Positions 16,951 through 35,655 of a stretch of DNA of 64,000 nt are shown piece after piece. Under the pieces are notes generated by a model that was not told the origin of the DNA, did not search any database, and was given only the letters and a program-made list of their open reading frames with translations. A program made the translations under genes and the position numbers. This DNA is from an uncultured Holophagales bacterium (GTDB lineage: Bacteria; Acidobacteriota; Thermoanaerobaculia; Multivoradales; UBA5704): positions 544,001 through 608,000 of the forward strand of contig CAWJGT010000001.1 of the NCBI GenBank assembly GCA_963842525.1. The letters are read 5' to 3'. Every line of letters begins with the position of its first letter. Positions within the stretch are counted from its first letter, which is position 1.

Positions 16951-16970
16951 GAACCTCCCTTCCCGGCCTT

Positions 16971-19509: not shown

Positions 19510-19577
19510 CTTGGCATTCCTCTACGGACTGGAATAACGTAGATGCAGATTATAGAGGGTGTCAAGGGGCGGAGGAC

Positions 19578-19606: not shown

Positions 19607-19612
19607 ATCACA

Positions 19613-19903
19613 CTACGAACGGGGTTGGCAGGTCGGGCTGCCCAAGGGGTCGATGCAAGGCGAGCCGTCGCTCTGGAGCGTGGATGGAGGGGCCGGATAG
19701 GCCGGGTCGCCGTTGGAGTCGAGCGAGTACGAGGTGTCGGGCGCGTCCAGGCCGAAGAGCGGCGCCAGGAGATCGACCACGGCAGCCCACCAGCTTGCGG
19801 CCTGGCTGTCGAGGCGGCCGCCGGGCCAGGCGTGCGCCGGCGTGACGGCGAGGCTGAGGGCCAGGGCGATTCCGAGCACGAGGATCCTCATCCGATTGGT
19901 CAT
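19613..19903 (-). CDS. Secreted peptide precursor (module 2) with DTSYSLDSNG and DGSPCIDPLGSPTC motifs
   Basis: GGGGAG RBS, signal peptide ending AHA, Trp-rich helix, same layout as 16971-17234. Confidence 0.85.
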   Translation of the reverse strand: MTNRMRILVLGIALALSLAVTPAHAWPGGRLDSQAASWWAAVVDLLAPLFGLDAPDTSYSLDSNGDPAYPAPPSTLQSDGSPCIDPLGSPTCQPRS

Positions 19904-20195
19904 CGTCTTTGTCTCCCCTGCGGCGGCGGCGCCCTCCATGGGCGGAGGCCCCGCATTGGGGCAAGTGTGGCAATGGGAGGAAGGGACGTAAAGGACGGCA
20001 AGGACAGCAGAAACGGATGCGGGCGGGGCCCGGGCAGGTTTTGCCCTACCTGGAAGAGAGCTGAGAAGTGGGGACGGACACGGAGGATGCTCGGGCGGAG
20101 CTGAGAAGGGGCCGGCGTGGCGGTATGGCCTCAACTGCCCGCCTGCAGCACCGCGGGAGACCAGAGGATACAGGAGCCTAGCCAGGCACTCACGG

Positions 20196-20326
20196 CGGAG
20201 GAAACGGCTGGCACCTATCCGGCACCTATCCGGGCTGACCGGAGGACACGTGAGCCAGACTCGGAGGAAACGGCTGGCACCTATCTGGAGCACCTATCCC
20301 GCCCCTATTTCCAGCAGCACCTATCC
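20196..20326 (+). repeat. Cluster of five GCACCTATC motifs
   Basis: Copies at 20211, 20222, 20277, 20290, 20317; 24-bp direct repeat at 20196 and 20262. Confidence 0.8.
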
Positions 20327-20374
20327 GGCAGGTTATAATACTGCGAACTTACCACTTGGGTGAGGGTCATAAGG

Positions 20375-22297
20375 ATGAAATGGAACGAGGGCCTAAAAGG
20401 CGCCTATCTGCGGATCGCAGCGACGAATAGATCCCCACTTCGCATTGTCGCTGGGCCGGGCACCGGTAAGACCTTTTCGCTGATGCGGAGAGTTGCTCGC
20501 CTCCTTCAAGAAGACGGGGTGAAGCCGAAGCGCATCTTCGTCTCGACATTTACTCGGACCGCAGCGCGAGATCTTGAGAAGACCCTTCGGGAGATGGACG
20601 CCGAAGGCGCCACCGACGTGCGCGCCGGTACTATCCACTCCTTCTGTTTCTCGGTGCTTGCCCGAGAGGAGGTTTTCCTTGCTACAGGGCGATCCCCCCG
20701 ACCCCTACTTACAGCGGAAGAGCGGTTCCTGTTGGAAGACCTTAGGGGGGAGCCTTTTGGGAAGTTGTCGGATTGCAAGAATTTGCTTCAAGCTTTCAAC
20801 GCCGCATGGGCAAGGCTACAGAGCGAAGAGCCTGGCTGGCCCGCCAATGCCATCGATCGGCAGTTTGAGGCAACCCTTGATGGTTGGTTGCGCTTTCATC
20901 AAGGGATGTTGATCGGAGAAATCGTTCCGGTCACACTCAGTTTCCTGCGAGACAATCCGTCGACGCCCATACTGACAGCGTTCGACCATGTTATCGTAGA
21001 CGAGTACCAGGACTTAAATCGTTCCGAGCAGGTCTTGCTTGATGTTCTTGCTGCGAATGGAAGATTTACCTTGGTTGGCGACGAGGACCAGTCAATCTAC
21101 TCGTTCAAGCATGCGCACCCGCAAGGAATTTCGCAGTTCAAGGTTAATCATCCTGAGACTCACGACGAGAGTCTCGAAGAGTGCCGCCGATGTCCGCAGA
21201 CTATAGTGAAAATGGCAAACGCACTAATTACATACAATCATAACCGTCAACCCAGGGAATTGGAAATAAGGAGTGAAAACTGCCAGGGTGAAGTGCATAT
21301 AATTCAATGGTGGGATATAGCTGAAGAGGCACAGGGGATAGCTCGGTTTATCCATGCTCGTGTCCAAGGAGATGTGGTCGGTGCTGGAGAGGTCCTCGTA
21401 CTTGCACCGCGACGACAGTTCGGCTATGCGATCCGGGACGCGCTGAAGAGGCTGGGAACGCCAGCTGTCAGTTTCTTCCAGGAGGAAGCTCTGGATGGCG
21501 ATCCAAAGAAGTTAGGAACGAGCCAAGCTCAACAAGCTTTCACACTGCTGAACCTACTGGCCGACCTGGAAGACCGCGTTGCGCTCCGCTGCTGGTGTGG
21601 TTTTGGTAGCCCGTCGCTTCGTAGCGGCGCCTGGAAGCGTCTTCGCCGCCACTGTGAGCAGACTGGACAGTCACCGAGGGAGGCTCTCGAGCAGATGATC
21701 CGGGGGGAGTTGACGCTCCCCAACTGCCAGGAGCTCGTTAACCGGTTCGCACTGCTTAAGGAGAGTCTTTCTGGCTTGACTGACCTATCGGGCAAGGGCC
21801 TGATTGACAGGCTATTTCCGGCAGATCAGCGATGGGCCCAGGCGCTTCGAGCGGCGGCTGAGACCATCGACAGAGAGGATGTCGATGCTCTAAAGCTAAG
21901 AGAGGGGGTGCGGACTGCGATTAGTCAGCCAGAGTTGCCGGTCGATGTCGATTATGTCCGCGTGATGAGCCTTCATAAGTCGAAAGGTTTGACGGCCGAT
22001 CTGGTTGTTGTCACTGGCTGCATCCAGGGTCTCATCCCGAAGGTTGATCTCGACCTAACGCCCGACCAGCAGGCAGTGATGCTTGAAGAGCATAGAAGAC
22101 TGTTTTACGTGGCATTGACTCGCGCTCGACAAACCTTGGTTTTGTCCAGCGTGATGCGCTTACCTCAAGAGTTGGCCTACATCTACCAGTTGGGCGCGGG
22201 GGCTGGCACCATGGCGACTACGTTTCTGAGCCAGCTAGGCCCTACACGGCCAGTGCCGGTCCAAGGTAAAACCTTTCTACGCAATCAGGGGTTGTAG
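20375..22297 (+). CDS. UvrD/Rep/PcrA-like SF1 helicase (cargo)
   Basis: AGPGTGKT, VDEYQDLN, VGDEDQSIYSF, MSLHKSKGL, RRLFYVALTRAR; TATAAT at 20334. Confidence 0.92.
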   Translation: MKWNEGLKGAYLRIAATNRSPLRIVAGPGTGKTFSLMRRVARLLQEDGVKPKRIFVSTFTRTAARDLEKTLREMDAEGATDVRAGTIHSFCFSVLAREEVFLATGRSPRPLLTAEERFLLEDLRGEPFGKLSDCKNLLQAFNAAWARLQSEEPGWPANAIDRQFEATLDGWLRFHQGMLIGEIVPVTLSFLRDNPSTPILTAFDHVIVDEYQDLNRSEQVLLDVLAANGRFTLVGDEDQSIYSFKHAHPQGISQFKVNHPETHDESLEECRRCPQTIVKMANALITYNHNRQPRELEIRSENCQGEVHIIQWWDIAEEAQGIARFIHARVQGDVVGAGEVLVLAPRRQFGYAIRDALKRLGTPAVSFFQEEALDGDPKKLGTSQAQQAFTLLNLLADLEDRVALRCWCGFGSPSLRSGAWKRLRRHCEQTGQSPREALEQMIRGELTLPNCQELVNRFALLKESLSGLTDLSGKGLIDRLFPADQRWAQALRAAAETIDREDVDALKLREGVRTAISQPELPVDVDYVRVMSLHKSKGLTADLVVVTGCIQGLIPKVDLDLTPDQQAVMLEEHRRLFYVALTRARQTLVLSSVMRLPQELAYIYQLGAGAGTMATTFLSQLGPTRPVPVQGKTFLRNQGL

Positions 22298-22335
22298 AGT
22301 GAAATGAGGGGCCAAATTACAGGATATCAAGGAGC

Positions 22336-25300
22336 GTGGCGAAAGGCGAAGCGGCGGATCAGGAGTGCAAGTTCATGAAAAAATTACCAGCGAAGACCAT
22401 TTCTCCACGGTGCCGCATTGGGCTCGTACAATTAGCGACGATTCCAGCCTACGTTACACCCAAAGTTGAGTGGCTTCGCGAACCTGCTCCTCCTCTTGAC
22501 GAAAAGACGCAACCATATCTAGCTGGCATAAAGAATAAGCCGGGGATTCAGGGATTGAGGGATGCAATATATGAAACCTACGGTCAGGACCTATTTTCAA
22601 AACTTCGCCTAATCCTTCAGGCGGTTGCGAGCCACCACGTGGATCTTCTTGTCTTTCCTGAGTACTCAATTCCTTTGTCAGCACTAAAGCAGCTGTCCCG
22701 CTGGGCGAGAGAAAACTCTTCGACGATTATCGCTGGAAGTCACACTGTAGTAATAACTCCTACTGCTCTCAAAGAATACGCAGATTGTGGTTTAAGAGCA
22801 GTTCAGGAATCGCCCAACGACTTTGCTAGAAAAGCGTTATCGCCAATATTCTTTGCAGATGGCCGTACAGATTTCCGCCTCAAGGTTACAAGATCCAAAT
22901 GGGAGCCAGATCTTCTGCTCGGTGAGGCTGACCAAGAACCTTTTACGATTACCCTTCAGGGGCAGGAAATCAGCGTTCAACTACTAATCTGTATTGATGC
23001 ATTAAGGCTTGGCATGGTCGGACGTGGCGCCAAACTGCTGGCCGTCTGTGCGTTGAGTCCACAGATCGAGCCTTTCCAGACTCTCTTTACACAAGCCCTC
23101 ATCAATGAAGTTCCCGGCGTAATAGCCAATAGTGCAGTATACGGAGGTAGCCAATTTTCATTGACGGGCCCATCCACAGCTAGTGACTTTGCTGAGCTTC
23201 TCAAGGTTGGCACTTCCGATGAGGTGCTCCTGATAGCCGATGTCGAACTCGGGAGGCAGTTCCAGAAACGGCGGTCTGTGGACTCCGAGCCCTCGTGGAA
23301 GCTCGTCGCGCGAAAGCCACTGCTGTATAGGGCGGTCTCATCACACGCCCGCTTAAGTGATTTGTTGGAATCGGCGAGGGCCAATACTACACTGCAAGTC
23401 CCCTTATCGGTACTCAATGAATTTGCGTTAGACCCTCATTTGCCAAAAGCTATGAGGCAACAACTTGAGATGTTTATTGGTGCATCTCAGGAAGGAGCGA
23501 TTACACCTGCGGAAGGGCAACTTCTACTAGATGCAATCTCAATTCCTGAGGTAATCCTTCCCTTCTGGAATCGGTGCCGACAAGGTTTAGAGGAATCCAA
23601 TCGCCAGATTGCCACACTTCTTCCTGATTACCCAGATGATGGCAGTCTAACAGACGCACTTCAGACCGTGAGCTATGGCATGAGGCACGCGAAAGGTAGG
23701 CTTCTGCCGCTGACTGTCCAACCATCACCACTTCGCGAAGGATCGGCGCAGGCTCCCCATCTATTCGTCAACCGCGAAGACGAGGTAGGTCGGCTTAGTA
23801 GACGACTTCTGAAAGATCCGGTCACCCTGGTAACAGGCCTGGCAGGAATCGGAAAGAAAACTCTTGTACAGAAGGTGATCGATGAGCTTTTTCCTCGGTA
23901 TCACAAGAAAGCCATTCACTGCGTCGATGGGATGACACCTTCTGAACTCCTGGAAGCACTTGCTGCAGCTCTTCTGGCGCCAGAACGGCTGAAGAAATTG
24001 GACGCTGCAAGCAAAGTACGTGAATGCCACATCTTGGTCGTTCACGATCTGGATCTGGTAGATTTTAGAGGCTCCGGCTTAGTGGATCTAGTGCAGTATT
24101 GGGAATTGCTCCACGGTACGGCGATCAGGATAGTTTTTCTTGCCTCAAGAAACATAAGCGAGCTTGATATTGCTAGCTTATCGCTAGGACCGCTCAATGA
24201 TGATGATACCAGGAGAATATTTGATTATTACTGCCGCCTATTTGGGGTATCGGCAATTGGGCAGTCAGATATTGTAGCTCATTTGTGGGGTTATCCGCTT
24301 GCAGCGCGAACAGCAGCCACGCTTCTGAGGGAAGGCGGTGGAGAAACGTTTGCGAAGCTTCGCTTCTTGAAGAAATTGCGGAGCGAGGTTGCAAAGATCC
24401 TCTTTAGAGGTTTGTCGCTCAGCGGCGAGGAGCGAAAGGCTTTGGAGGCGTTATCTATCTTTAGGAGGCCTGTAGAAGCTGAACTCGTGGAGAGGCTTGG
24501 AATTCAGGATAGTATTGATGGTCTCGAAAGCCGCTTCATACTATCACGCGAAGACGGGAGAATTTTTGTTATCCCACTTGTCCGGGAAGTGGCAATCGAA
24601 GATTGGATTAAACAGGGCGCTGCAACTGCTTATCATCGTATCGCGGCGAACCACTTCAAGGACCAAATTGCGTCCTCCGACAGCATACGCAGATTTGAAG
24701 CCACAGATGAAGCCGTCTATCATTTCTCCAGCATAGGCGACTTCGTTACAGCTCGCTCGCTCGGTGGTGATTGGTTTCAGCGGGCTCGCTCGGCATCACG
24801 AGATCTATATAGGCGCCGTGGCTATAAGGAAAGTGCGGCCATATGTGAAAAGGCACTTGAAACAACGCCGACAGATCGCGATTTTCTCGTAAGGCTTGTT
24901 ATGTGTTCCTCTAAATTGCGGAGGTGGCCTCGCGGGAAGGCGTGCATTGAACGACTGCGTTCTCTTGGTTCAGTGCCAGCCAAGGCTCTTACTTCCTATG
25001 GAGAGGCACTTGCGCGCGCGGGAATTCGACAGGAAGGGAAAGCCTATCTAGAGGAATGCCTAGAACAGCACCCGGGAGACCCCTATGCACTGGCTGTTCT
25101 TGCTAACGTGCACTTAGATGAGGGTAATCTGGCTCTTGCGAGAAACCTTGCTGACGAGGCACTAGAAGGAGATGCTCTGTGTGTGCGAGCGCTTGAAGTG
25201 GCGAGTATCATATCGCGCAGCGAGGGAAACAACGAGCGCGCGTATGAACTGGCTTATCGTCTCATGGGCATAGACCCCCAAAGAGGGGAAAGGATCTTTC

Positions 25301-25377
25301 AAAAGGCGCGAAGCGCTCTTGTTAAGAAATACGGCGGGGGTGTGCCCGGTGACCTGCTGAAGAGGCTTGAGTCTTGA
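22336..25377 (+). CDS. Nitrilase (CN-hydrolase) - STAND NTPase - TPR fusion
   Basis: RIGLVQL, LLVFPEYSI, IIAGSH, LICIDAL; FVNREDE, GLAGIGKK, GYPLA; C-terminal TPRs; AT-richer than flanks. Confidence 0.8.
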   Translation: MAKGEAADQECKFMKKLPAKTISPRCRIGLVQLATIPAYVTPKVEWLREPAPPLDEKTQPYLAGIKNKPGIQGLRDAIYETYGQDLFSKLRLILQAVASHHVDLLVFPEYSIPLSALKQLSRWARENSSTIIAGSHTVVITPTALKEYADCGLRAVQESPNDFARKALSPIFFADGRTDFRLKVTRSKWEPDLLLGEADQEPFTITLQGQEISVQLLICIDALRLGMVGRGAKLLAVCALSPQIEPFQTLFTQALINEVPGVIANSAVYGGSQFSLTGPSTASDFAELLKVGTSDEVLLIADVELGRQFQKRRSVDSEPSWKLVARKPLLYRAVSSHARLSDLLESARANTTLQVPLSVLNEFALDPHLPKAMRQQLEMFIGASQEGAITPAEGQLLLDAISIPEVILPFWNRCRQGLEESNRQIATLLPDYPDDGSLTDALQTVSYGMRHAKGRLLPLTVQPSPLREGSAQAPHLFVNREDEVGRLSRRLLKDPVTLVTGLAGIGKKTLVQKVIDELFPRYHKKAIHCVDGMTPSELLEALAAALLAPERLKKLDAASKVRECHILVVHDLDLVDFRGSGLVDLVQYWELLHGTAIRIVFLASRNISELDIASLSLGPLNDDDTRRIFDYYCRLFGVSAIGQSDIVAHLWGYPLAARTAATLLREGGGETFAKLRFLKKLRSEVAKILFRGLSLSGEERKALEALSIFRRPVEAELVERLGIQDSIDGLESRFILSREDGRIFVIPLVREVAIEDWIKQGAATAYHRIAANHFKDQIASSDSIRRFEATDEAVYHFSSIGDFVTARSLGGDWFQRARSASRDLYRRRGYKESAAICEKALETTPTDRDFLVRLVMCSSKLRRWPRGKACIERLRSLGSVPAKALTSYGEALARAGIRQEGKAYLEECLEQHPGDPYALAVLANVHLDEGNLALARNLADEALEGDALCVRALEVASIISRSEGNNERAYELAYRLMGIDPQRGERIFQKARSALVKKYGGGVPGDLLKRLES

Positions 25378-25726
25378 ACCTAGCCGGCCGAGGGCTGCTG
25401 GTCGAGCGAAAACTCCTCATTGAGGTTCTACGAGAAGGTGCGCGACTGTTACTTGGCCGCTGTGATCGAGTAAGTTTCAGCTAAGGTGAGCTTGAAGCCG
25501 TTGACCTTTGGCCAGACGAGCCGGGACGAGACGGCTGGCACCTAGCGCCGGCTCGACCGTGCTTCCCCGGAACCTACCGACCTTGGCCGAGGGCTTTTCG
25601 GCCCGGCGCTTCGGGCTCGCCTGAGGTTTCGGAATCCGGTGGCACCTATCCGGGCAGGCTACCACGCCGCGGCACCTCTGCCGGGATGTCGCAGCCTAGG
25701 AAAGTCATCGGCGCGTGGTTCTGCGC

Positions 25727-25981
25727 TCAGTGCACTACGGGCTGCAAACGACTTTCCCAATCGATCGGGAAGAAGCGAGCCTTCTCCCTCTCTCCTCTGA
25801 GCGAGTAGCCAGGCATCCCTTCTCTCTGATAGGCGGTCACTTCGAAGACTTCGCCATCGACTTCGACCCGATCGCCTGGCTGGTAGGCGGGGGGCACCTC
25901 CCTCCAGCGGGCCTGGAAGTCGGCGATTCGGGCCTCGGCCTCGCGGAGCAGCTCGGCGAGTTGGTCGGGGGTCAGTGCCAT
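25727..25981 (-). CDS. Small hypothetical protein
   Basis: MALTPDQLAELL...; GC-rich gene between AT-richer cargo genes. Confidence 0.5.
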   Translation of the reverse strand: MALTPDQLAELLREAEARIADFQARWREVPPAYQPGDRVEVDGEVFEVTAYQREGMPGYSLRGEREKARFFPIDWESRLQPVVH

Positions 25982-26217
25982 TGGGGGATTATAGGGCAAG
26001 GCGGGTGGCGCGGGGGGCGAAGGCCTCACTATCTCGGTGAAGAGGCTTGGCACCTATCGCCGGGGGTGATACCTAATCCGGGCACTTAGAAGCTGGCGAG
26101 TTTCAACTTGAAAGCAAACGGTTCCTTTGACAGACGACATCGACGACAAGCAATAGTTATCTTCCTCCTAAATGTTGAGCGTCGTCACGTATAGGGTGAT
26201 ACTATTAGGCATCAAGC

Positions 26218-28977
26218 ATGCGAGAGGAAATTATGACCAGAAAGGGTTCCGAGCCTCTTAGGACTCCGGGCGACAGCGTAGCTGAAGACGTTCATGCCAA
26301 AGGTTGGGATTTCGAACAACTCCTCGGCCAGCTAGAGGAAGAATATAGGAAGTCAGGTATACAGGACTTCTGGCACCGAGAGAGAGACGCTATCCGCTCT
26401 GCTCTTCAGAGCGTAGCTAGCACGCTCCCGAGAGCTCGTTACTCGCCCGATAAGGTGCTCGGCGTTGGAGGCTCGGGCGTGGTCATACGGTTGAAGGATT
26501 CGCTATTTCCGAGAGTAGACAACGCGCTCAAATTTCCTCGCCCAGTTGCTGGCAAGGTGGAACTCGTGGCAGAGTTGCTAGGAAGAGAGATTCAATATTT
26601 GGCGCAGCTCCGCCATCCTGGTATTGTAAAAATTCTGTACTATAGGTACGCCAAAGACATACCGGGCTATGGAACACTTCCGTTTTACTTAATGGAGGCG
26701 GTAGACGGCGTATCGTCCGGTAGGTTCGTTCGCAAGGAACTAACGCAGCAGCAGCAGCTCGTGGATCTAGTGCACAACACCGCTGCCATATTACAATATC
26801 TTCATACACTTCCAATCGGAGCCTTCGCCCACTTAGACCTCAAGCCCGATAATTTTATGGTTGACCACACAGGCCAACCTATTATGATTGATCTCGGCAC
26901 CTGCAAGCGCATTAGTCCAGAGGTCGATAATACTACCGTTGCATGCACGCGCTCATTCGCTCATCCTCAACTGATTCGCCAACTGACGGAAGATCCTTCT
27001 GACGAGAATCGCGCAAGGGGGGAAGTTCTACGCTCGGCTATCAGATTAAATTGGGATCTCTGGTCTTTTGGGTTAATGCTTATATCGTGGCTTGGATTTG
27101 ATCATAACACCGGGCATCTTGAGGTGCCCAGAATTCTTGATCTTTTAGATCCATATACCAGAAAGTATCTGCTACTCCTCTCTGCTCGCCTGCTTGCCGA
27201 GAATCCACCCACGTGGTTGCTGAAGAGAGTCGGCCTTAGTCATGAGTTCCTTAAGACGGTCCCCATTACTACCGCCTCGGAACTTAAGGAAGCGTTAGAC
27301 AGACTTGATGGCTCACAAGGTCCACTTGCTAGAGTCCAGGAGTTTCAGGTTCGAGGAAGTGGCACTATTCAGGCTGCACCTGGTACACATGTACCGGTTA
27401 CGAAGGCTTTGTCAGCGGTCCTTGAGCATAGACTTTTTAGAAGGCTAAACACGATCAGTCAACTGGGGTTAGTTTCGCAGGTGTACCCTGGCGCAAAGCA
27501 TACTCGAAGAGAGCACAGTTTGGGCACCTATGCAAATACCCTTAAGATGGTTCGGGTACTGTATAACGATCCTGTATCGCCGCTGTTCCGTCAAATTATT
27601 ACGGATGACGACTGCCGAGATTTGCTCCTAATTTCGCTACTTCATGATATAGGACACTTCCCTCTAGCCCACGACTTGGAGGATGTAGACAACAAACTAT
27701 TTAACCATGTTGAACTTACTCAGGCAATGCTCAAGGGCCTGTGGGAGAAGAAGAAAAGAGGCAGTACAAAGGTTAGCTTTGATTCACTCGAAGCCGTCTT
27801 CACTCTGTGGGGTACCACAAGCGATCGCCTAATGTCAATTTTGGCCGCAAAACCAACGAGCAATGACTCTAGCCCGAAACGCAAGTTGCTTCGCTCAATA
27901 ATAAGTGGACCCATTGATGCGGATAAGCTAGATTATTTGTTTCGAGATGCTCGACATCTCGACCTGCCATACCCAAACGGCGTCGATGTAGATCGCTTAT
28001 TCAAGTGCCTCACAACAGTCGTCGTGGACAGAATCGAAGGAGGCTACAAAGACATACCAGTTGTTGGGGTGCATGCAAAGGGGAAGGTATCTGCCGAGTT
28101 CCTTAGCATGGCGAGGTACGCCATGTTTTCTCAAGCATATTGGCATCATGCGGTGCGTGCGCAAAAGTCGATGCTCCTGCGGGCAGTTGAAGCCTTGCTA
28201 GGTGAGGAGAGCGAGTCAAAGATTAGAGAACTGCAATCAGCTTTTGTGTCGATGGTGTGTTCTCTCCCAGAGAGTCTATATGATTCAAGAGAAGTTAGGA
28301 GCTTGTTTGAAGATGATCCTCAAGCGGCTGACCGGTTAACTTCACCTCTTGGAGGGCACGGAACAGATCTTGCCGCCACTGATGCCGCCGTTCTTTCGTG
28401 GCTTTACAAGCGCCTGACTGATGCTAACCGTCCAGAGTCTTTGCTGATAGAGGGAATCCTCAGGCGCAACCTGTTCAAGCGACTTTGGGTGGTAAGCAGA
28501 GATATGGAGAGTCAGCGGTGGGACAAGATCGTCCGGATTTGGGAGAAGCTGGATAGGATCCAACGGCACAAGGTAGCTCACGAGTTTGAAAAAAAGGTCG
28601 CCGGCCGAATTGCAACAGAGGGATTGCAGAGCATAACTTCGATGGCTGCGGAAAGCGCAGAGGACAAGGTCGATCGCTTAACACGGGGGCAGAGCCCCTG
28701 GTTGCTAATCGATATACCAGGCGACCGACCTGGCTCTGAGATTGGACTTTATCATGTACTTGAGAGCCAACGTCGTAAGCTGCGGAAGGATGATCGGGCT
28801 GTCGGCGAGCTGGAGAAATCAATAGTCTGGGAAGAGTACGCTCGCAACCTTCTAAGGGTTGCAGGCAAGGTTAGGATCTTTTGCGCTCCTGATTTGGTTG
28901 ACAGCATAGAAGCTTCGGTTCCTTGGGAAAAAGGAATCGAAGATCTTACCACCGTCCTTGAGCGTGCCGAGGTTTGA
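26218..28977 (+). CDS. Ser/Thr kinase fused to HD-domain (SAMHD1-like dNTP triphosphohydrolase)
   Basis: LGVGGSGVV, ALK, HLDLKPDN, IDLG; then RRLNTISQLG..VYPGAKHTRREHSLG, LLHDIGHFPLAH, DADKLDYLFRD. Confidence 0.88.
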   Translation: MREEIMTRKGSEPLRTPGDSVAEDVHAKGWDFEQLLGQLEEEYRKSGIQDFWHRERDAIRSALQSVASTLPRARYSPDKVLGVGGSGVVIRLKDSLFPRVDNALKFPRPVAGKVELVAELLGREIQYLAQLRHPGIVKILYYRYAKDIPGYGTLPFYLMEAVDGVSSGRFVRKELTQQQQLVDLVHNTAAILQYLHTLPIGAFAHLDLKPDNFMVDHTGQPIMIDLGTCKRISPEVDNTTVACTRSFAHPQLIRQLTEDPSDENRARGEVLRSAIRLNWDLWSFGLMLISWLGFDHNTGHLEVPRILDLLDPYTRKYLLLLSARLLAENPPTWLLKRVGLSHEFLKTVPITTASELKEALDRLDGSQGPLARVQEFQVRGSGTIQAAPGTHVPVTKALSAVLEHRLFRRLNTISQLGLVSQVYPGAKHTRREHSLGTYANTLKMVRVLYNDPVSPLFRQIITDDDCRDLLLISLLHDIGHFPLAHDLEDVDNKLFNHVELTQAMLKGLWEKKKRGSTKVSFDSLEAVFTLWGTTSDRLMSILAAKPTSNDSSPKRKLLRSIISGPIDADKLDYLFRDARHLDLPYPNGVDVDRLFKCLTTVVVDRIEGGYKDIPVVGVHAKGKVSAEFLSMARYAMFSQAYWHHAVRAQKSMLLRAVEALLGEESESKIRELQSAFVSMVCSLPESLYDSREVRSLFEDDPQAADRLTSPLGGHGTDLAATDAAVLSWLYKRLTDANRPESLLIEGILRRNLFKRLWVVSRDMESQRWDKIVRIWEKLDRIQRHKVAHEFEKKVAGRIATEGLQSITSMAAESAEDKVDRLTRGQSPWLLIDIPGDRPGSEIGLYHVLESQRRKLRKDDRAVGELEKSIVWEEYARNLLRVAGKVRIFCAPDLVDSIEASVPWEKGIEDLTTVLERAEV

Positions 28978-29131
28978 AAGAAATGGAATCAGGGCCAACC
29001 TACGGCTCCTGGGCAGATCAATTAAAGAGGTCGATCTATAGGGTGAAGGATGTCGTTTTCACCTGTCCTCCTCCTTTTCACAATCGCTGGCGATCCAAAG
29101 AGACTGGCCTCAAACACGTTTTCGGACGCCC

Positions 29132-29497
29132 TTACTCATAGTCCCCTGGCAGCGTCGGCCTAGGAGGGGTGGTAGCGCCTTCCAGGCGCCGGGTGAGCGC
29201 TTCGTTGGTTCGGGTCAGGGCTTCGAGCTTGGCCTGCATCTGGGCTTCCAGGGCGGCTAGCTCGGCTTTGTGGCGGCGTTCACGCTCTTCGGCTAGGGCC
29301 TGGAGGGCCTCTCTTTCGCGTTGGTAGGCCTCCTGGCGTAGTGCGTGGCCCTCCTCGAGGATCCGCACGTCGAGCTGGAGTTGCTCCTGGCGCTTGTCCT
29401 GGCGGCGCTGGAGCCAGCGGCGGAGGAGCTCCAGGAAGGCGGCGCTGCCTCCGAGGGCGGCCAGGCCGGTGACGATGCGATCGACGAGCTCGCTCAT
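29132..29497 (-). CDS. Membrane-anchored coiled-coil protein, possible holin-like
   Basis: One N-terminal hydrophobic segment plus charged coiled coil; last gene of the late operon. Confidence 0.45.
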   Translation of the reverse strand: MSELVDRIVTGLAALGGSAAFLELLRRWLQRRQDKRQEQLQLDVRILEEGHALRQEAYQREREALQALAEERERRHKAELAALEAQMQAKLEALTRTNEALTRRLEGATTPPRPTLPGDYE

Positions 29498-29538
29498 GAG
29501 GGAGGGCCTCGTGATTTTCAGGCGGTAGCCGGAGGTGA

Positions 29539-29563
29539 GGGCAACCACAAGGGTTGCCCCTAC
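29539..29563 (-). repeat. GTAG-type REP-like palindrome
   Basis: GTAGGGGCAACCCTTGTGGTTGCCC on the minus strand. Confidence 0.7.
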
Positions 29564-29586
29564 ATGGGATTGCGTCGGGTTGGACA

Positions 29587-31068
29587 TCAGGACCTCCTAC
29601 AGAGGAGATAGGCGTCCGCCTGGGCGGGGGTGCCGTTGGTTGGGTGGTCGAGGGAGACCAGCTCGATTCGCTGGCCGGGGTGCAGGGCTGTGACCTCGTG
29701 GATGCGGCCCTGCTGGAGGAGGTCGGCGGCGTCGTAGGGCCAGGCGGGGCGGTGGTCGTCGATAGCGTTCGAGGTGTAGAGGGTGGCGCCGTTCAGGAGG
29801 AGGTCGACCTGGGTCTGGCCGGAGTCCCCTCCCCCATTGTCGGAGAGGCGGTAGAGGACGTCTTCGAGGATGAGGCCGTCGTGGAGGATCACGGCGTCAG
29901 CGATCGGGCCGGGGGTGGGTGGGAGGGGGCCTCGGAGGTGGAGGACGACGGTTTCCGCGGCGTAGGTGCGGCGGTCTTGAAGGTCGATGACCTCGTCGGC
30001 GTCGGTGGTGGCGATCCAGAGGGGGCCGAGGCTGGTGGTCTCGGGGGGTGGGGCGGTGGGGGCGGCGAGCTCCCAGGCGCCGTTCGCACGTTGGTAAAGG
30101 CACGTGGTGGTGGTGGGCGGGAGGAGGAGGTCGGTCACAGTCGAGTGATAGCGGAGGGTGCCCCCGGCTATGGCTCGGCCGGGGTGGAGGCGGAGATGGA
30201 GGCCGGTGCCGGGCTCGACTCGGTAGCGGTCGAAGAGGCGGAGGTCGGTGAGGTGGGTGGAGTCGATCTCGGAGACGGCCGAGGGCTGGTAAAGGACTTC
30301 AAGGACGGCAAGGACCGGCTCCCAGGAGGGCGCCGAAGGACGGACAGGGACGGGAGCTTGCAGGCTCTTGGTGATGGTGAGGCCGTTGGGGCCGATGGAG
30401 AGAACGGCGAGATAGGAGGTGCCGGGGGCCAGGGGGGTGGCGGTGGCGTCTTCTTGGGAGAGGGCGAGGGTGGTGGCGACGTGGCCGATGAGGTCACCTC
30501 GGTAGAGGAGGTGGCCGGCGGCGATGTGGACCTGGTCGTCGGACGGGACGGAGGGGGTGACCTGGAAGCCCTTCAGGAGGGTGCTGTGGCCTCGATCTCC
30601 CAGGCCGGTGAGGATGCCTTCTCGGGTGCCGGGCGGGACAGGTAGGGAGTGATCGGCGGCCAGGACGGCGAGACGGAATTGCCAGGTCAGCGAGGCGGCC
30701 GTGGCGGGCGGGCGGAGCTTGAAGTCTCCGTAGCGGATGCCTCCGGAGAGAAGGGTCCGGATGGGCAAGGAGCGCCAGGCTCCTACGGGAATCCAATCGG
30801 TGATCTCGAGGAACTGGCCAGGGGCGTTGCTTGCGTCCTGGCCGGCTAGGCGGAGGCGGCCCCAGAGCTCGTCGGTGGGGGGCACTCCTGAAGAGGCCCA
30901 CTGGCCGGTGGTGGGGCCGAGGACTTGAAGGACGACAAGGACATCAAAGACATCAGGACCGGTGTTCTGGAGGGCGAAGGGGATGATGGCGCTGTCCTGG
31001 CCGGCTTCGAAGGGGTCGATGGTGACATCGTGCATGGGGGTGAGGTCGGGATTGAGGATCTGGATCAT
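29587..31068 (-). CDS. Putative tail/baseplate structural protein
   Basis: Beta-rich; position in the co-directional late operon. Confidence 0.55.
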   Translation of the reverse strand: MIQILNPDLTPMHDVTIDPFEAGQDSAIIPFALQNTGPDVFDVLVVLQVLGPTTGQWASSGVPPTDELWGRLRLAGQDASNAPGQFLEITDWIPVGAWRSLPIRTLLSGGIRYGDFKLRPPATAASLTWQFRLAVLAADHSLPVPPGTREGILTGLGDRGHSTLLKGFQVTPSVPSDDQVHIAAGHLLYRGDLIGHVATTLALSQEDATATPLAPGTSYLAVLSIGPNGLTITKSLQAPVPVRPSAPSWEPVLAVLEVLYQPSAVSEIDSTHLTDLRLFDRYRVEPGTGLHLRLHPGRAIAGGTLRYHSTVTDLLLPPTTTTCLYQRANGAWELAAPTAPPPETTSLGPLWIATTDADEVIDLQDRRTYAAETVVLHLRGPLPPTPGPIADAVILHDGLILEDVLYRLSDNGGGDSGQTQVDLLLNGATLYTSNAIDDHRPAWPYDAADLLQQGRIHEVTALHPGQRIELVSLDHPTNGTPAQADAYLLCRRS

Positions 31069-31074
31069 CTCGGG

Positions 31075-32073
31075 CTACTCCAGGAAGAAAAGGAGATTGG
31101 GAAAAGCGTCGTGGATGGGGTGGCGCGCCACGGAGACGCGGGCGGTGGGCTCGCCGGCGGTGGCGGTGCTGGGGGCCTCGATGATGACGGGGAGGTCTCC
31201 TTCGGGCGGAGTGCCATAGAGGAGGGCGGTGATGCCGTCCGTGGAGACGGCGGCGTTGATGGCTTGGCCGAAGCCTTGGGCCAGGGCCCAGGCGCCGGTG
31301 GTGGGCCAGCGCGGGTCTGTGTCGGCTCCGAGAGTCGGGGGTAGAGATCGCAGGGTGTTGGACGGGACGGCCAGGCCGAGGGAGGTGCCGTCCGCGGCGG
31401 CGAAGCCTTGGACGAGACCGAGACCGGCTCCGTCCTGGGACTCGGCTCCGGTGAGATCGAAGGCGAAACGGGCTCCGGCGGCGTCGGTGACTTCGAAGTT
31501 GAGGTTGTCGTACCAGGTGGTCGCGAAGTGGAGGCTTGTCGGGGTCGCGGCGACGGTGGCCGCGGAGAAGAGGTCCCAGCTTGCGACGAGGGCCGAAAAG
31601 ACGACGGTGGCGACGGTCTGCGGGTTGGACAGGTCGCAGGCGGCGGTGCGAAGGGTGAGGGTGGCCTGATTGGTGTTGGGCTCGTCTTCGTGGTCGGGAA
31701 ACTCGACCCACCAGAGCTGGCCCTGATGGTAGACGGGGGGCGAGCACCAGGCGGCGACGGTGCCCTGGTAGGTGTGGAGCTGGGCGGCGGCTACATCCCA
31801 GACGGTCAGCTCGTTGTCGCCGCTGCGCCAAGCGAGGGAGCCGGGGCCGACGGCGGCGTTGGGATCGATGGCGATGAGGGTGCCGTTTCCGCCGGATAGG
31901 GACTCTCCGGAGAGTGGGATAGAGCCTCGGTCAGCTAGAAAGGTGCCGTCGCTAGCATAGAGGGCGGCGACCAGGTGGCCGGTGTCGAGGAAGGCGTAGT
32001 AGCGGGGCACGGCGGACGAGACGGAGACGGCGTAGGCGTCGGCTTTGCGGTGGCGGAGGCGGGTGAGGGGCAT
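31075..32073 (-). CDS. Putative tail-associated protein
   Basis: Late-operon position; beta-rich. Confidence 0.5.
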   Translation of the reverse strand: MPLTRLRHRKADAYAVSVSSAVPRYYAFLDTGHLVAALYASDGTFLADRGSIPLSGESLSGGNGTLIAIDPNAAVGPGSLAWRSGDNELTVWDVAAAQLHTYQGTVAAWCSPPVYHQGQLWWVEFPDHEDEPNTNQATLTLRTAACDLSNPQTVATVVFSALVASWDLFSAATVAATPTSLHFATTWYDNLNFEVTDAAGARFAFDLTGAESQDGAGLGLVQGFAAADGTSLGLAVPSNTLRSLPPTLGADTDPRWPTTGAWALAQGFGQAINAAVSTDGITALLYGTPPEGDLPVIIEAPSTATAGEPTARVSVARHPIHDAFPNLLFFLE

Positions 32074-32079
32074 GGGAGG

Positions 32080-32607
32080 TCAGGTCCTTCCGTAGGCGAT
32101 GGGGGCGCTGGTGATCGGGCGGGCGGTGGCGGCTACGGCGAGATCCAGGAGAAGAAGCTCGGGGGAGACGAACTGGAGGGCGAGGACCTCGAGGTCGGGA
32201 TTCAGGGTGCCTTCAGAAACAGATGGGTCGGGGTCGAGGAAGTCGATTCGGATCCGGTCGTCGAAGCCTCGGCCTTGGACGGTGACTTGGACCGTCTGGC
32301 CGGGGTAGTACTCGGATGGATCGAGTTTCTCGATCCAGAGGGTTCCGGCGGGGATGGTTTCGGAGGTGCCGATGCCGGTGATTCCGGAGCGGTGGAAGGG
32401 GGCGAGACTGGGATTGAGGAGGACGGTTCCGGTGTAGTGGTTGTTGGGGGTGCCTCTCGTAACGCAGCGGGCGTCGGTGCGCTGGAGGCGCTCGGTGCCG
32501 TCTTGGTGGCGGCCTAGGACTCTCGCGGTGCGGGCGGGGGCTTGCTCTCTTTCACGGCGATCGAGCAGGTTTCCCAGGAGAGTGAGGATCTTTTCGGCAC
32601 CGGTCAT
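32080..32607 (-). CDS. Putative tail protein with Ig/IPT-like C-terminus
   Basis: AGGAGG RBS; IEKLDPSE..PGQTVQVTVQGRGF. Confidence 0.5.
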   Translation of the reverse strand: MTGAEKILTLLGNLLDRREREQAPARTARVLGRHQDGTERLQRTDARCVTRGTPNNHYTGTVLLNPSLAPFHRSGITGIGTSETIPAGTLWIEKLDPSEYYPGQTVQVTVQGRGFDDRIRIDFLDPDPSVSEGTLNPDLEVLALQFVSPELLLLDLAVAATARPITSAPIAYGRT

Positions 32608-32764
32608 GGGGCGGCCTCCTGAGCCCTCTCCCCCTGCCCCCCTCTCCCGTGCGGCCACCGGCCCGCCTCCCCGAACGGGAGAGGGGGAAGGTGCGGAACC
32701 TCACCCCCTGGCCCCCTCTCCCATCGCACTCCCTTCCCCCGGGAGAGGGGGGACGCGGTCCGTG

Positions 32765-34990
32765 TCATAGAGGCTGCTCCAGGGTGTAGGTGGCTAGGAT
32801 CTGGGGACGCGGAGAAAAAACCCAACGCTCGGTGCGGCGGGTGACTAGACAACGGTGGTGGATGCCGCTGCGGGGATCTATCAGGAGGATGGTGTCTCCG
32901 GGTCTGGTGGCGCAGATGGGGCGGATGACGGTGTGGATGAAGGCCATTCTTCTCGCTCGCCGGCGGCTTGCTATAAAGGCGGCTTCTTCGGGGGATTGGG
33001 CGTAATCGAGGGTCAGGACTTCGACAGAGGGTCCCCACCAGGTGGCGGCGACGGGGTCTTCGAGGATGATCTCGAAGGGGGTTTGGGTGAGGCGGGTCCA
33101 ACTGGATTGGCGGTAGCGGGGGCGGGGGGCTCGGCCCATGACGAGGCGGCTCACGGCTCCGGTGCCGTCGTCGACCAGCTCTTCGTAGGTGGAGTCGTCC
33201 AGGACGTTGTAGGCGGTCGTCTTGAGGCTGGTGGTGGCCCAGGTCTCGTGGGTGAGATTGGAGCTGGAGTCTCCCCAATCGTGGGCTCCGGCGACGCGGC
33301 GGGGGGCGTGCCAGCCGGTGGTGGTCTCGACTTTGCCGGTCAGGAGGCCGTCGGCGGAGAGGTGGTTAGAAGTCGTCTTGCGGATGACTCTTTGGAAGGG
33401 GGCGAGGAGGTCTTTCTGGCCGGCTCCTGAATAGTTGAGGAACCAGGGGACTTCGGAAACGGCGGTGCGCTGGGAGTACCAGGCGGAGGTCTCCTGGACC
33501 TCTTTCGTCACGGCTCCGGTGTCACCGTATTCGTGGTGGATCTCGTCAACCTGGGCGAGGCCGAAGTCTTCGATGCGGAGGAGGGCGGTCAGGGCGGTTT
33601 CGAAGGGATACCAGCTCAGCGCGTCGTCGCCGATTCCGGCTCCTACGACGTTGGGTGTGGATGAGCCGGCGTTCCGGACGGCCATGGGGCGGCTGTACCA
33701 GCGGAAGGTCTCGATGCGGCGGGCGGTCTCGGTGCCTTCGGCATCGTAGGTGGGCAGCTCCCGGCGTTCGCCAGTCTTCACGAAGGATTCCTGGCGCCAG
33801 GCTCGGCAAGAGCCTTCCTCGTCGAGGAAAGCCTGGGCCCAGTAATAGCCGTCTTCGACGGGGCCGGGGGGCTCGCCGGCGAAGGGGGTGCGGAGCTTGG
33901 CGGCTCTCGGGTTGTACCAGCCCCATTGCCTTGTGATCTTGGCGATGGTCAGGCCGGCCTGGTCGTGGGTCTCGGTCTCCAAGACGGAAACGAGCTGGAA
34001 GGTCTCGGCGCTGGCGGCGGCGATGGGTTGGAGAGAGCCGTCGGTGAGCTGCATGGCGACGGCTTTCTTGACGGCGTAGAAGTCGAAGACCTCGTCTCGC
34101 TGCTTGGTGATCGTGATGCCGGTCGGGGCTTGCGTGGTCTGGGTCGAACGGATCACCCACTGGCTCGGGACATCGGTGGGGGCGGCGGACTCGATCGAGA
34201 GGACGTCTCGGAGGGTCCAGACGTCGTCGGGGGGCTCGGGGGGCTGGCGCAGCTCGACCCGGTAGGCTTGGACGAGCTGGTCGTCGGCGAGGCGCCAGGA
34301 CCAGCCCTCGGCTTCGCAGAAGGCGGCCAGAAAGGGCCAGAGCTTCTGGCTATCGGTGAGGAGGGGCTTGGTGTAGAGGGCTCCGGCGGGGACGTCTGCG
34401 GTGAAGCCGGCGTCGGTGAGGATCTCGCGGCAGATGTCTCCTCGGGTGAGGCCCTCGTCGGCGGCGAATTCGTAGCAGAGCTCGTGGCGATCGTAGAGGC
34501 GGGACGGGTCGCCGCATCTGACGCGAAGGGTGGGCTCGAGGCCTTCTTGCTGCTCGCAGGAGAGGACGTAGCCGAAGGCTCGGCGCCAAGTGCGGAGGGT
34601 GCCGATCGGGCCGGCGGTGACCCAGATTTCGACGGGGGTGGAGGTCCAGGTGGTCTCGGTGGATTGGATGGACCAGCGGCGGCCGACGAGGGTGAAGGAA
34701 AAGAGGACGGCGGGGGTGTCGATGGAGTCGTCGATTTCGAGGGGGCCTAGAACGGCGGAGGCTGGGAGCCAGGTGTGGCCTAGCTTGATTTGGAAGTTGT
34801 AGGCGATGGAGGAAGAAGAAAGATTTTCGATCAGGGAGCGGGAGACAACGCCCAACAGGGTCGCAGAGTTGGGGCTGGCGAGGTGGCCGCGGAGACCCTC
34901 ACCCCCGGCCCCTCTCCCATCCGCACTCCCTTCCCCCGGGAGAGGGGAGACAAGCTTGAAACTCGCGGAGGTGGCTACGATCGGCATCAC
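32765..34990 (-). CDS. Putative tail hub/baseplate protein
   Basis: 741 aa in the tail region; C-terminal TRPGDTILL. Confidence 0.55.
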   Translation of the reverse strand: MMPIVATSASFKLVSPLPGEGSADGRGAGGEGLRGHLASPNSATLLGVVSRSLIENLSSSSIAYNFQIKLGHTWLPASAVLGPLEIDDSIDTPAVLFSFTLVGRRWSIQSTETTWTSTPVEIWVTAGPIGTLRTWRRAFGYVLSCEQQEGLEPTLRVRCGDPSRLYDRHELCYEFAADEGLTRGDICREILTDAGFTADVPAGALYTKPLLTDSQKLWPFLAAFCEAEGWSWRLADDQLVQAYRVELRQPPEPPDDVWTLRDVLSIESAAPTDVPSQWVIRSTQTTQAPTGITITKQRDEVFDFYAVKKAVAMQLTDGSLQPIAAASAETFQLVSVLETETHDQAGLTIAKITRQWGWYNPRAAKLRTPFAGEPPGPVEDGYYWAQAFLDEEGSCRAWRQESFVKTGERRELPTYDAEGTETARRIETFRWYSRPMAVRNAGSSTPNVVGAGIGDDALSWYPFETALTALLRIEDFGLAQVDEIHHEYGDTGAVTKEVQETSAWYSQRTAVSEVPWFLNYSGAGQKDLLAPFQRVIRKTTSNHLSADGLLTGKVETTTGWHAPRRVAGAHDWGDSSSNLTHETWATTSLKTTAYNVLDDSTYEELVDDGTGAVSRLVMGRAPRPRYRQSSWTRLTQTPFEIILEDPVAATWWGPSVEVLTLDYAQSPEEAAFIASRRRARRMAFIHTVIRPICATRPGDTILLIDPRSGIHHRCLVTRRTERWVFSPRPQILATYTLEQPL

Positions 34991-35655
34991 TGCTCCGTCT
35001 CGACGAGGGCTATTCGTCTCGGCTCTCGGATCCAGTCTCGGTAGTGACGGGACTGGTCTTCGGCGGCGGTGACCATGGCGAAGAGGGGGACGAGTTGGAC
35101 GATCAGTCGGGTGCCTGATGGCGGGGGCTCAGAAAGCTTGAAGCGGCGGCCACCTTGCTCAAACCAGCAGTCGCCGGCGGATGGGGTGTCGGTGGCGTAG
35201 GTGGCGGGGTCGGGCTCTTGGATGGACAAGGCGGTGCTTCCCCAGCCTGGGCGGATGGTGGGATGGAAGCGCTCGGGTGGGGCTCCGGCGGGCGGGGTCA
35301 GGAGATGGTGGGACTGGCGCCAGGGGAGGTCCCATTCGGCGCGGTGGCCGTCGGCCAGGTAGCCGAGGGTGACGTGCTTCCAGAGGGTCAGGTCGTGCGG
35401 GCCGGGGAAGGCTAGACGTGCTTCGACTTCTTCGGCTAGCGGGCCTAGATGGCGGTAGTCGAGGGTGACTCCGTACCAGCGGCGGATGACAGGGGCGCCG
35501 GGAAGCGGGGCCAGGCGCTGCTCTCTTGTGCTGCCGTTCGCCATGCGGATGGTGCCGACGAGCTCGGTCTCTACGACTTCCCAGGAGTCGGCGGCGGCTC
35601 CGAGCAGGTGGAGGCCGTCGAGAGTCGGGGCGGTGGCGGCTCCGGTGGTGCTCAT
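34987..35655 (-). CDS. Putative distal tail protein
   Basis: Translationally coupled; IRMANGS motif. Confidence 0.45.
   Translation of the reverse strand: MSTTGAATAPTLDGLHLLGAAADSWEVVETELVGTIRMANGSTREQRLAPLPGAPVIRRWYGVTLDYRHLGPLAEEVEARLAFPGPHDLTLWKHVTLGYLADGHRAEWDLPWRQSHHLLTPPAGAPPERFHPTIRPGWGSTALSIQEPDPATYATDTPSAGDCWFEQGGRRFKLSEPPPSGTRLIVQLVPLFAMVTAAEDQSRHYRDWIREPRRIALVETEQ

Follow-up and report, generated by a model that had tools for sequence, protein, structure and literature searches.

The window analysed here is a 64,000-nucleotide stretch from the genome of an uncultured Holophagales bacterium, and it contains, on the forward strand, an intact open reading frame (ORF; 26218..28977) of 919 amino acids (aa) when counted from the first ATG. 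The predicted product joins a Hanks-type Ser/Thr protein kinase to an HD module of the SAMHD1 type, and we refer to the gene as the kinase-HD gene. It lies in an island of low guanine-plus-cytosine (GC) content within a prophage (Table 1). An initial annotation, made from the sequence alone, had described an AT-richer ORF of 919 aa with its own promoter-like region, in which intact kinase motifs are followed by the H...HD...D set of deoxynucleoside triphosphate (dNTP) triphosphohydrolases, and had proposed a kinase-gated defence by nucleotide depletion.

The true start of the gene is probably the second ATG, at 26233, which gives a protein of 914 aa, because the purine-rich GAGAGGAA lies 4-11 nt 5' of this codon, the relative P0004 (91% identical to the window protein) is itself 914 aa long, and the first residue of the relative P0005 is the Met that matches ATG 26233. 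The length given in the initial annotation thus holds for the ORF counted from its first ATG but probably not for the protein. The base composition was described correctly: the gene has a GC content of 0.503, whereas the late operon beside it stands at 0.669 and the window as a whole at 0.657. As for the promoter-like region, an AT-rich stretch with a TTGACA hexamer does precede the gene, but a sigma-70 scan reported no site in 26085-26217, the hexamer notwithstanding. A sigma-54 reading of a TGGCAC-containing repeat was rejected by eye, the TTGC element being absent at the required spacing.

Catalytic halves of the fusion protein

Conservation in the kinase half was assessed in two alignments, A1 with 31 sequences and A3 with 34 genome loci, whose 34 N-terminal halves make up the kinase profile. 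Pfam Pkinase matches residues 76-291 of the window protein (5.9e-19; 68.9 bits against a cut-off of 31.7), and the A3 profile matches M. tuberculosis PknB at 3.3e-34 in an alignment that starts at the Gly-rich loop and takes in both the P+1 loop and the APE region. The motifs are a Gly loop G82-x-G84-G85-x-G87, K105, E124, the catalytic loop H205-L-D207-L-K209-P-D-N212 and D225-L-G227, and their residues are kept in 31/31 sequences of A1, with the exception of G87 (30/31). Across the 34 loci of A3, they are invariant only at G84, G85, K105, E124, D207, K209 and N212, with variation at G82 (21/34), H205 (31/34), D225 and G227 (33/34 each) and L226 (27/34). Further along the chain, D280 of subdomain IX is present throughout both alignments (31/31 and 34/34), and R324 of subdomain XI in 31/31 and 33/34 sequences, respectively. 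Since Leu replaces the Arg of HRD, the catalytic loop HLDLKPDN assigns the kinase to the non-RD type, and its DFG motif reads DLG.

The activation segment carries T239, found in 31/31 sequences of A1 and 24/34 of A3, which from the PknB alignment we take to lie within a residue or two of the PknB activation-loop phosphosite. T244 (Thr in 30/31, Ser in the remaining sequence) aligns with the GT of the PknB P+1 loop and A248-H-P250 with its S-P-E region, and about 25 residues are inserted between this APE-like A-H-P and subdomain IX. The kinase half is thus apparently an active Ser/Thr protein kinase, and the intact Hanks-kinase motifs of the initial annotation were borne out. A match to Pfam APH (5.9e-07) had raised the alternative of a small-molecule kinase, which we rejected since the similarity is at the level of PknB and subdomains VIII to XI are all present. 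The N-terminal extension (residues 1-70) matches no known domain, and the linker (residues ~331-384) gives no family match.

The HD half was placed by comparison with solved structures. A profile of this half searched against the PDB (E <= 0.001) gave 30 matches, all 30 in the SAMHD1/EF1143 clade (SAMHD1, EF1143, aq_1910, 2q14, 9mr6 and a C. elegans homologue), with no hexameric Dgt among them. The E-values were 6.4e-39 for Aquifex 2hek, 5.9e-35 for 2q14, 4.4e-31 for EF1143 (2o6i), 8.6e-27 for the C. elegans homologue, 5.3e-22 for mouse SAMHD1 and about 1e-19 for human SAMHD1, and a single-sequence PDB search with the HD half likewise matched this clade alone. Pfam HD_assoc_2 scores 30.9 bits on the HD half, over its cut-off of 23.1, and Pfam HD scores 19.3 bits, under its cut-off of 22. 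By these similarities the HD half belongs to the tetrameric SAMHD1/EF1143 clade of dNTPases and not to Dgt, and dNTPs are the predicted substrate because it falls in that clade.

The metal tetrad H433...H476-D477...D569 is present in 31/31 sequences of A1, and we take it to correspond to H66, H110, D111 and D183 of EF1143 by position in the 2o6i alignment. R430, H485, H497, K570, Y573, R576 and D577, each likewise conserved in 31/31, occupy positions that have assigned catalytic roles in SAMHD1. The H...HD...D set named in the initial annotation is therefore confirmed within a single chain in which both catalytic sets are conserved. One weak stretch of the C-terminal region of the family aligns with the C-terminal lobe of mouse SAMHD1, and residues 385-919 therefore look like a whole SAMHD1-type core, extending beyond the HD motif.

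Fused HD modules differ from 25 stand-alone relatives in several respects. They carry inserts at 449-465 (motif DPxSPLFRQ) and at ~498-545 (with W531); they read PLAHD where the stand-alone relatives have PFSH, with A484 replacing the Ser found in 25/25 stand-alone HDs; and they have their own conserved T395, T599, K621, W642 and K650. The closest solved relatives of the HD half, EF1143 (2o6i) and the other stand-alone bacterial HDs 2hek and 2q14, represent a type of protein of about 370-480 aa without a kinase, and the fused HDs form a separate clade marked by the two inserts and PLAHD.

With SAMHD1 itself the window protein shares a homologous HD core, including the H..HD..D set and the motifs RxxHSLG, HDxGHxPxxH and DxDKxDYxxRD, and the placement of a regulatory module N-terminal to this core. 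The module at the N-terminus is a SAM domain in SAMHD1 and a protein kinase here, and the fused family has its own inserts. The antiviral activity of SAMHD1 is modulated by Thr phosphorylation, which is carried out in trans by cyclin-dependent kinases at a C-terminal Thr. In contrast to this arrangement, the window protein carries its kinase and its HD module on one chain, in which no counterpart of the C-terminal phosphosite of SAMHD1 was identified. The parallel with SAMHD1 phosphoregulation is an analogy, and at this level of similarity the relationship is too distant for a statement on descent.

Family, spread and gene neighbourhoods

A word-indexed search returned 175 relatives, and the 120 listed are 33-91% identical to the window protein and mostly 870-940 aa long. 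The initial annotation had proposed a domain-architecture search as a check, and by Pfam (manual count) a kinase family occurs together with HD or HD_assoc_2 in 113 of these 120 homologues. In an exhaustive profile search of 1.84 billion cluster representatives, the best 150 (clusters at 50% identity) all have E <= 1e-133, most of them being 840-990 aa long and covering the whole profile, and 1914 proteins reach E <= 1e-30. The family thus comprises at least 150 clusters at 50% identity. A protein atlas holds four clusters with the kinase-HD architecture (70, 150, 51 and 56 members), and none of the 15 longest variants examined has an extra domain. A metagenome scan gave a best match of 57% identity and did not return the relatives at 64-91% (P0004 to P0008).

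Among species-representative genomes we found 122 relatives and kept 80 loci, 34 of them full-length fusions. These are distributed over Actinomycetota (9), Acidobacteriota (7), Bathyarchaeota (4), Verrucomicrobiota (3) and eight further phyla including Nitrososphaerota, so that the family spans at least 12 bacterial and archaeal phyla. Trees of the HD parts separate 35 fusions from the 25 stand-alone HDs by one branch (support of 99 in the Shimodaira-Hasegawa-like approximate likelihood-ratio test, SH-aLRT, from which the two truncated rows L006 and L042 were left out, and 99 in FastTree). Within the fused clade the phyla are intermixed, and the window protein lies nearest to members from Desulfobaccales, Pyrinomonadaceae and Nitrospiria. 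Pairwise identities of the kinase and HD halves correlate with r = 0.89 over 561 non-independent pairs, and the two halves are still joined in each of the 35 genome members examined. Taken together, the family survey, the HD trees, the intermixed phyla and this correlation point to one old fusion that was inherited as a unit, with its halves co-evolving, and spread by horizontal transfer.

At closer range the distribution is patchy. Among 61 related genomes, a close copy occurs only in the window's own genome and a fusion of any kind in 4; within the genus, a full-length match is found in one of six genomes, the window's own included. The distant fusions (28-32% identity) in three of the 60 other relatives (G059, G009 and G028) are each a lone gene of low GC content at third codon positions (GC3; 0.53-0.61) among neighbours of GC3 0.85-0.99. 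Some match at E <= 1e-10 is present in 59 of the 61 genomes; in the rows listed, most of these genomes have their best match to the HD half (~399-650), in open frames of mostly ~400-500 aa that probably represent a housekeeping paralogue. In a phylum sample of 301 genomes, 2 have a match at E <= 1e-60, a count that may miss members because three candidates were scored per genome. The compositional signature extends across the family: the GC content of the fusion gene is more than 3 points under that of its flanks in 27 of 32 loci and over it in one, with a median difference of -7.2 points.

All-against-all clustering of 402 neighbour ORFs within 7 kb at 39 loci gave no family present in more than 4 loci, and none of the window neighbours recurs beside homologues in the 80 loci, save a relative of the UvrD-like helicase at one locus (25% identity). 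Because no neighbour gene is conserved, the kinase-HD gene is predicted to work as a stand-alone gene without a conserved partner. The company it keeps was assessed within two ORFs of the fusion. By our own reading of Pfam matches, defence or mobile genes are present in 16 of 38 loci, and they include NACHT, Shedu SduA_C with an integrase, PglZ with a methylase and AbiEi, Schlafen/RhuM, HsdM and Eco57I-type methylases, as well as DUF1156, TniQ, a DDE transposase, a serine recombinase with an AEP primase, and Replic_Relax. PADLOC at E <= 1e-15 places known or candidate defence proteins in 11 of the 38 (pAgo, PglX, HmaB, type I and type II methyltransferases, HNH and candidate PDC systems), and the union of the two sets comes to 18 of 38. 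Family members often have integrases, transposases or genes of restriction-modification, BREX, Argonaute and Shedu systems next to them.

Two arrangements of relatives were noted in passing. In the Bathyarchaeota loci L036 and L064, the same Eco57I-type methyltransferase and calcineurin-like phosphoesterase flank the kinase-HD gene, and a mad3-like SMC/AAA_23 ATPase is present at one of the two. The arrangement may represent a multi-gene variant, or shared ancestry may simply account for it. Among the 25 stand-alone HD loci (L049-L077), a conserved ORF of ~190 aa comes next after the HD gene in 13. One such ORF has a DarG-like PADLOC match, a PDB match was not found, and several of the pairs lie inside type I restriction-modification or Hma-type clusters. 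The pair may be a second, two-gene deployment of the same enzyme.

The prophage and its cargo slot

The surrounding prophage was delimited from PHROGs matches on gene calls guided by GC3, since longest-ORF calls were often in the wrong frame in this GC-rich sequence. Its left attachment site is likely the junction of a tRNA-Ala gene and a serine integrase gene; a repeat of the tRNA 3' end, as would mark the right end, was not found in the window. After the integrase come a DnaB-like helicase, a replication initiator and a repressor-like helix-turn-helix (HTH) gene, and then a forward-strand island at ~20.3-29.0 kb with GC 0.50-0.56, against about 0.67 in the flanks. The kinase-HD gene sits in this island between the regulatory region of the prophage and the end of the late operon, from which it is opposite in strand.

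Table 1. Coordinates of the kinase-HD gene, its domains and the surrounding features in the window.
Feature	Coordinates	Strand	Remarks
Kinase-HD fusion gene	26218..28977	+	Stop codon 28975-28977; probable true start ATG 26233
AT-rich 5' region	26085..26217	+	GC 0.44; TTGACA hexamer present
N-terminal extension, residues 1-70	26218..26427	+	Family-conserved Y43, W52, E55
Hanks-type Ser/Thr protein kinase core, residues ~71-330	26428..27207	+	Pfam, PknB profile match, motifs
Linker, residues ~331-384	27208..27369	+	Conserved; invariant E375
SAMHD1/EF1143-type HD catalytic core, residues ~385-680	27370..28257	+	PDB profile matches; key R430, H433, H476, D477, H485, H497, D567, D569, K570, Y573, R576, D577
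C-terminal lobe, residues ~681-919	28258..28974	+	Family-wide conservation
9-mer GCACCTATC, two exact copies 5' of kinase-HD gene	25642-25650, 26050-26058	+	
UvrD/GajB-like helicase	20360-22297	+	PADLOC GajB 1.6e-48, RTasHel 1.6e-46
1013-aa protein	22336-25377	+	Weakly nitrilase-like N-terminus, nSTAND6 NTPase, TPR repeats; 38 bp after helicase
Surrounding prophage	7894..46673	.	GC3-guided gene calls and PHROGs
tRNA-Ala(GGC)	7894-7969		Overlaps 3' end of large serine recombinase gene
Serine integrase	7935-9446		Left end of prophage
Late operon	29132-46673	-	Tail completion, head-tail adaptor, major head, portal, large terminase

A sister prophage on another contig of the same genome (locus L170, contig C9) shows that the slot is not fixed in content. 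Its late genes next to the slot match those of the window prophage at 85% identity along 5.8 kb, the sequence just left of the island is shared as well, and in the same slot (L170 10725-13743) the sister prophage carries a different 2.7-kb cargo of low GC content on the forward strand, with ORFs of 130, 151 and 451 aa, none of which has a Pfam or PADLOC match. From this different cargo at the same position we conclude that the slot is a variable cargo site, such as prophages use to house defence genes.

In the window, the island holds a second unit, the helicase gene and the gene for the 1013-aa protein, which we call the STAND protein. Because neither is found beside fusion homologues elsewhere, the pair is probably a separate two-gene defence candidate. 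Relatives of the STAND protein are rare: 5.8 billion proteins include just three with at least 25% identity, and 300 other genomes from the phylum include none. The nitrilase label of its N-terminus comes from a weak PADLOC match (3.5e-06) and the name that one source gives to a 25%-identical relative, and this region has no Pfam CN_hydrolase match and no PDB match. Between the STAND gene and the kinase-HD gene lies a spacer of 840 bp with a host-like GC content of 0.61. It contains an ORF on the reverse strand (25730-25981, 84 aa) that is also host-like in GC content and has no match in Pfam or PADLOC scans.

The 9-mer GCACCTATC links the two units in sequence. It occurs seven times in the window, always on the forward strand, where 0.31 copies are expected; five of the copies (20211-20325) lie upstream of the helicase gene, within 150 bp of it, the final one 8 nt before a perfect TATAAT (20334-20339), and the other two precede the kinase-HD gene. 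The 9-mer looks like an operator common to both cargo units, and it was not found upstream of the sister prophage cargo.

Several other features of the prophage and its surroundings were recorded. TPR or HTH-plus-TPR proteins of 325-630 aa, which may be lysis-lysogeny regulators, are encoded beside the repressor-like gene in both prophages (15769-16983 and 18421-19509, both on the reverse strand, in the window; L170 1334-5923). A family of GC-rich repeats of ~62 nt has nine copies between 13048 and 44890, mostly between prophage genes, and matches the sister prophage too. The portal-protein gene contains, at 42568-42738, a tandem array of about 19 copies of a 9-nt unit (AGGACGACA and variants). 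Beyond the late operon, a tyrosine integrase is followed by a 902-aa protein with AAA_16 and TPR regions (46703-50549), whose gene includes four repeats spaced by 126 bp (48019-48678); a second mobile element, or a further gene of the STAND type, may lie here. At 52982-53067 (forward strand), ARAGORN reports an odd tRNA-like gene with a two-base anticodon, which Rfam did not confirm.

Proposed function and its alternatives

The genomic behaviour of the kinase-HD gene is that of a mobile, accessory, defence-like gene, as seen in its prophage slot, low GC content, patchy spread and defence or mobile neighbours. We suggest that it encodes a single-protein anti-phage defence in which dNTP depletion is controlled by the protein's own kinase, and we give this reading, built on domain content and genomic setting, a little under an even chance of being right. 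The gene would act in defence by itself, move horizontally and ride in the prophage as cargo, and its one polypeptide would hold two live enzymes. The HD module would be the effector: once on, it would convert dNTPs to deoxynucleosides and triphosphate, and an infecting phage would be starved of DNA precursors. The Hanks kinase, with the N-terminal extension and the family-specific insert after the activation segment, would act as the switch. It would be held off in the uninfected lysogen and activated by an infection cue, probably by autophosphorylation on the activation segment (T239), and the activated kinase would then turn on the HD module in cis, or in trans inside an oligomer.

The direction of control (from kinase to HD), the trigger and the anti-phage phenotype are all points that we infer, and the gating of the HD module by the kinase is the weakest step of the proposal. 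We prefer gating because an unregulated dNTPase would be toxic and because the fusion-specific inserts and surface changes of the HD module could receive the signal. The fully specified scheme, in which a Hanks kinase senses infection and directly phospho-switches a SAMHD1-type dNTPase within one chain, as a prokaryotic counterpart of the kinase control of SAMHD1, making the family a new, horizontally spreading, stand-alone nucleotide-depletion immune protein in at least 12 bacterial and archaeal phyla, is a more tentative proposition, and we consider it possible but doubtful.

Precedents exist for each half of this scheme. EF1143 and SAMHD1 are dNTPases, and EF1143 is described as a tetramer activated by dGTP (PMC9257424). 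dGTPases and a dCTP deaminase bearing a kinase domain are reported to defend by nucleotide depletion, and the same study suggests that all-dNTP enzymes of the E. faecalis type may defend likewise (Tal et al., 10.1101/2021.04.26.441389). The defensive dGTPases, which are of the Dgt type, resemble the window protein in their HD superfamily, in the proposed depletion of precursors and, as that study describes, in often lying near restriction-modification genes; they differ in belonging to another HD clade and in having no kinase. The defensive dCTP deaminase resembles it in joining a nucleotide-binding 'kinase' domain to a nucleotide-destroying enzyme on one chain, with both domains needed for defence as Tal et al. 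report, and the nucleotide-binding motif of that domain was mutated there as G29A/C30A (10.1101/2021.04.26.441389). Its effector is a deaminase, unlike the HD hydrolase of the window protein. From the G29A/C30A motif we take the kinase-like domain of the deaminase to be of the P-loop nucleotide kinase type rather than the Hanks type.

On the kinase side, Stk2, PD-T4-6 and Mad6 of MADS belong to the same superfamily, and PD-T4-6 and mad6 are the best PADLOC matches of the kinase half. None of the three has an HD module, however, and the PD-T4-6 and mad6 matches are limited to the N-lobe and catalytic loop (model positions 8-164 of 292). The window protein reaches 40.3 bits on NCBIfam MAD6, for which the cut-off is 460. 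By its matches to their models it falls outside the defensive dGTPase, PD-T4-6/Stk2 and MADS Mad6 groups. In our literature search, no publication was found that describes a Hanks kinase joined to a SAMHD1-type HD, a result that leaves absence unproven because most subscription journals lay outside the search. Under nucleotide depletion, the relevant part of a January 2026 review lists dGTPase and dCTP deaminase only, and the review speculates on unidentified SAMHD1-like proteins in bacterial defence (PMC13276650).

A number of observations weigh against the function proposed for the kinase-HD gene. Housekeeping or unannotated genes are the only neighbours in 20 of the 38 homologue loci, and in a control set, the 25 stand-alone HD loci, PADLOC matches occur in 11, including type I restriction-modification operons and HmaA. 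The control loci are not neutral, and we therefore claim no enrichment figure and have no clean baseline for the defence association; the pattern suggests that defence genes tend to accompany this entire branch of SAMHD1-type enzymes. The HD half is not covered by any known defence model, as far as model matches indicate: the PADLOC dGTPase model gives E = 0.01 on this half alone (13.2 bits, model positions 48-125 of 395). The matches to PD-T4-6 (5.4e-20) and mad6 (3.8e-18) amount to generic kinase similarity, since ordinary neighbouring kinases reach 1e-78 on the same models. Full-length members were found on no viral contigs (0/43 loci), phage records (0/10) or plasmids (0/2 matching records), and prophage carriage, as in the window, is unusual for the family. 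Finally, the Glu of APE is not conserved in A1, and H480, at the HDxGH position of SAMHD1, is Gln in 16 of 31 A1 sequences, so that the catalytic detail may depart from that of the textbook enzymes.

The two halves could be independent effectors, with the kinase phosphorylating many host or phage proteins and so arresting growth as Stk2 does, and with the HD module breaking down nucleotides at the same time, or the HD module could be the sensor and the kinase the output. Stand-alone Hanks kinases do defend alone, Stk2 and PD-T4-6 being named both in a review (PMC13276650) and among the PADLOC models; the kinase here has all its catalytic residues and the Ser/Thr-type P+1 Thr T244, and a sensor role for the HD module would have a basis in the allosteric nucleotide sites that SAMHD1-type enzymes have at subunit interfaces (PMC9257424). 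We nevertheless regard this pair of options as unlikely. The halves are fused in all 35 genome members, their divergence is correlated (r = 0.89), and the HD module has fusion-specific inserts and substitutions. Functional coupling accounts for these features better than a pair of unrelated activities would. Since its catalytic residues are invariant, the HD half is predicted to be more than a sensor. A change of HD substrate, to ribonucleoside triphosphates, modified phage nucleotides, a signalling nucleotide or nucleic acid, would fit the two family inserts (449-465 and ~498-545), the presence of PLAHD where stand-alone relatives read PFSH, A484 in place of the Ser of 25/25 stand-alone HDs and the Gln at H480, and SAMHD1 is reported to bind nucleic acids too (PMC7854603). 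It is improbable because the metal tetrad of the dNTPase clade is invariant, as are the other conserved His, Asp, Tyr and Arg residues of that clade, and because the PDB relatives all fall within it.

The two remaining alternatives place the gene outside immunity. In one, the protein is a signalling-controlled regulator of dNTP pools, for dormancy, development or the cell cycle in soil bacteria, that happens to travel horizontally. Housekeeping dNTPases are known in bacteria, Dgt for example being described as promoting cell-cycle progression in Caulobacter (PMC12186491), and the 20 of 38 loci with ordinary or unannotated neighbours would suit such a role. Against this, a match of some kind is near-universal among the related genomes (59/61), in the rows listed mostly to the likely housekeeping HD paralogue, whereas the fusion occurs in only 4/61 and 2/301; the gene is compositionally foreign in 27/32 loci and occupies a prophage cargo slot in the window, and its kinase is of the PknB-like protein type rather than a nucleoside kinase. 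We hold this physiological role to be rather improbable. In the other, the gene would serve the prophage itself by controlling host replication or nucleotide pools in induction or lysogeny, as its location inside the prophage and the operator-like GCACCTATC shared with the neighbouring cargo unit might suggest. Such a service is very improbable, given that the sister prophage does without the gene, that almost all family members are in chromosomal, non-phage contexts, and that fusions number 0/43 among viral-contig relatives and 0/10 among phage-record matches.

A defensive, kinase-controlled dNTPase is the reading that we prefer. Nucleotide depletion (dGTPase, dCTP deaminase) and kinase signalling (Stk2, PD-T4-6) are known separately as antiviral strategies in bacteria, and human SAMHD1 is a restriction factor that depletes dNTPs and is regulated by phosphorylation. 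The kinase-HD family joins a protein kinase to a SAMHD1-type enzyme. Under the more tentative, fully specified scheme, it would be the first defence protein with a protein kinase wired in cis to a metabolic effector, and it would give the tetrameric SAMHD1/EF1143 clade its first demonstrated defence role in prokaryotes. If the preferred proposal is correct, the family would provide a one-gene model for the phosphorylation gating of a SAMHD1-type enzyme and a functional bridge between the tetrameric SAMHD1 clade and prokaryotic immunity. In soil bacteria and archaea, it would then represent a new, widespread class of defence that current defence catalogues have missed.

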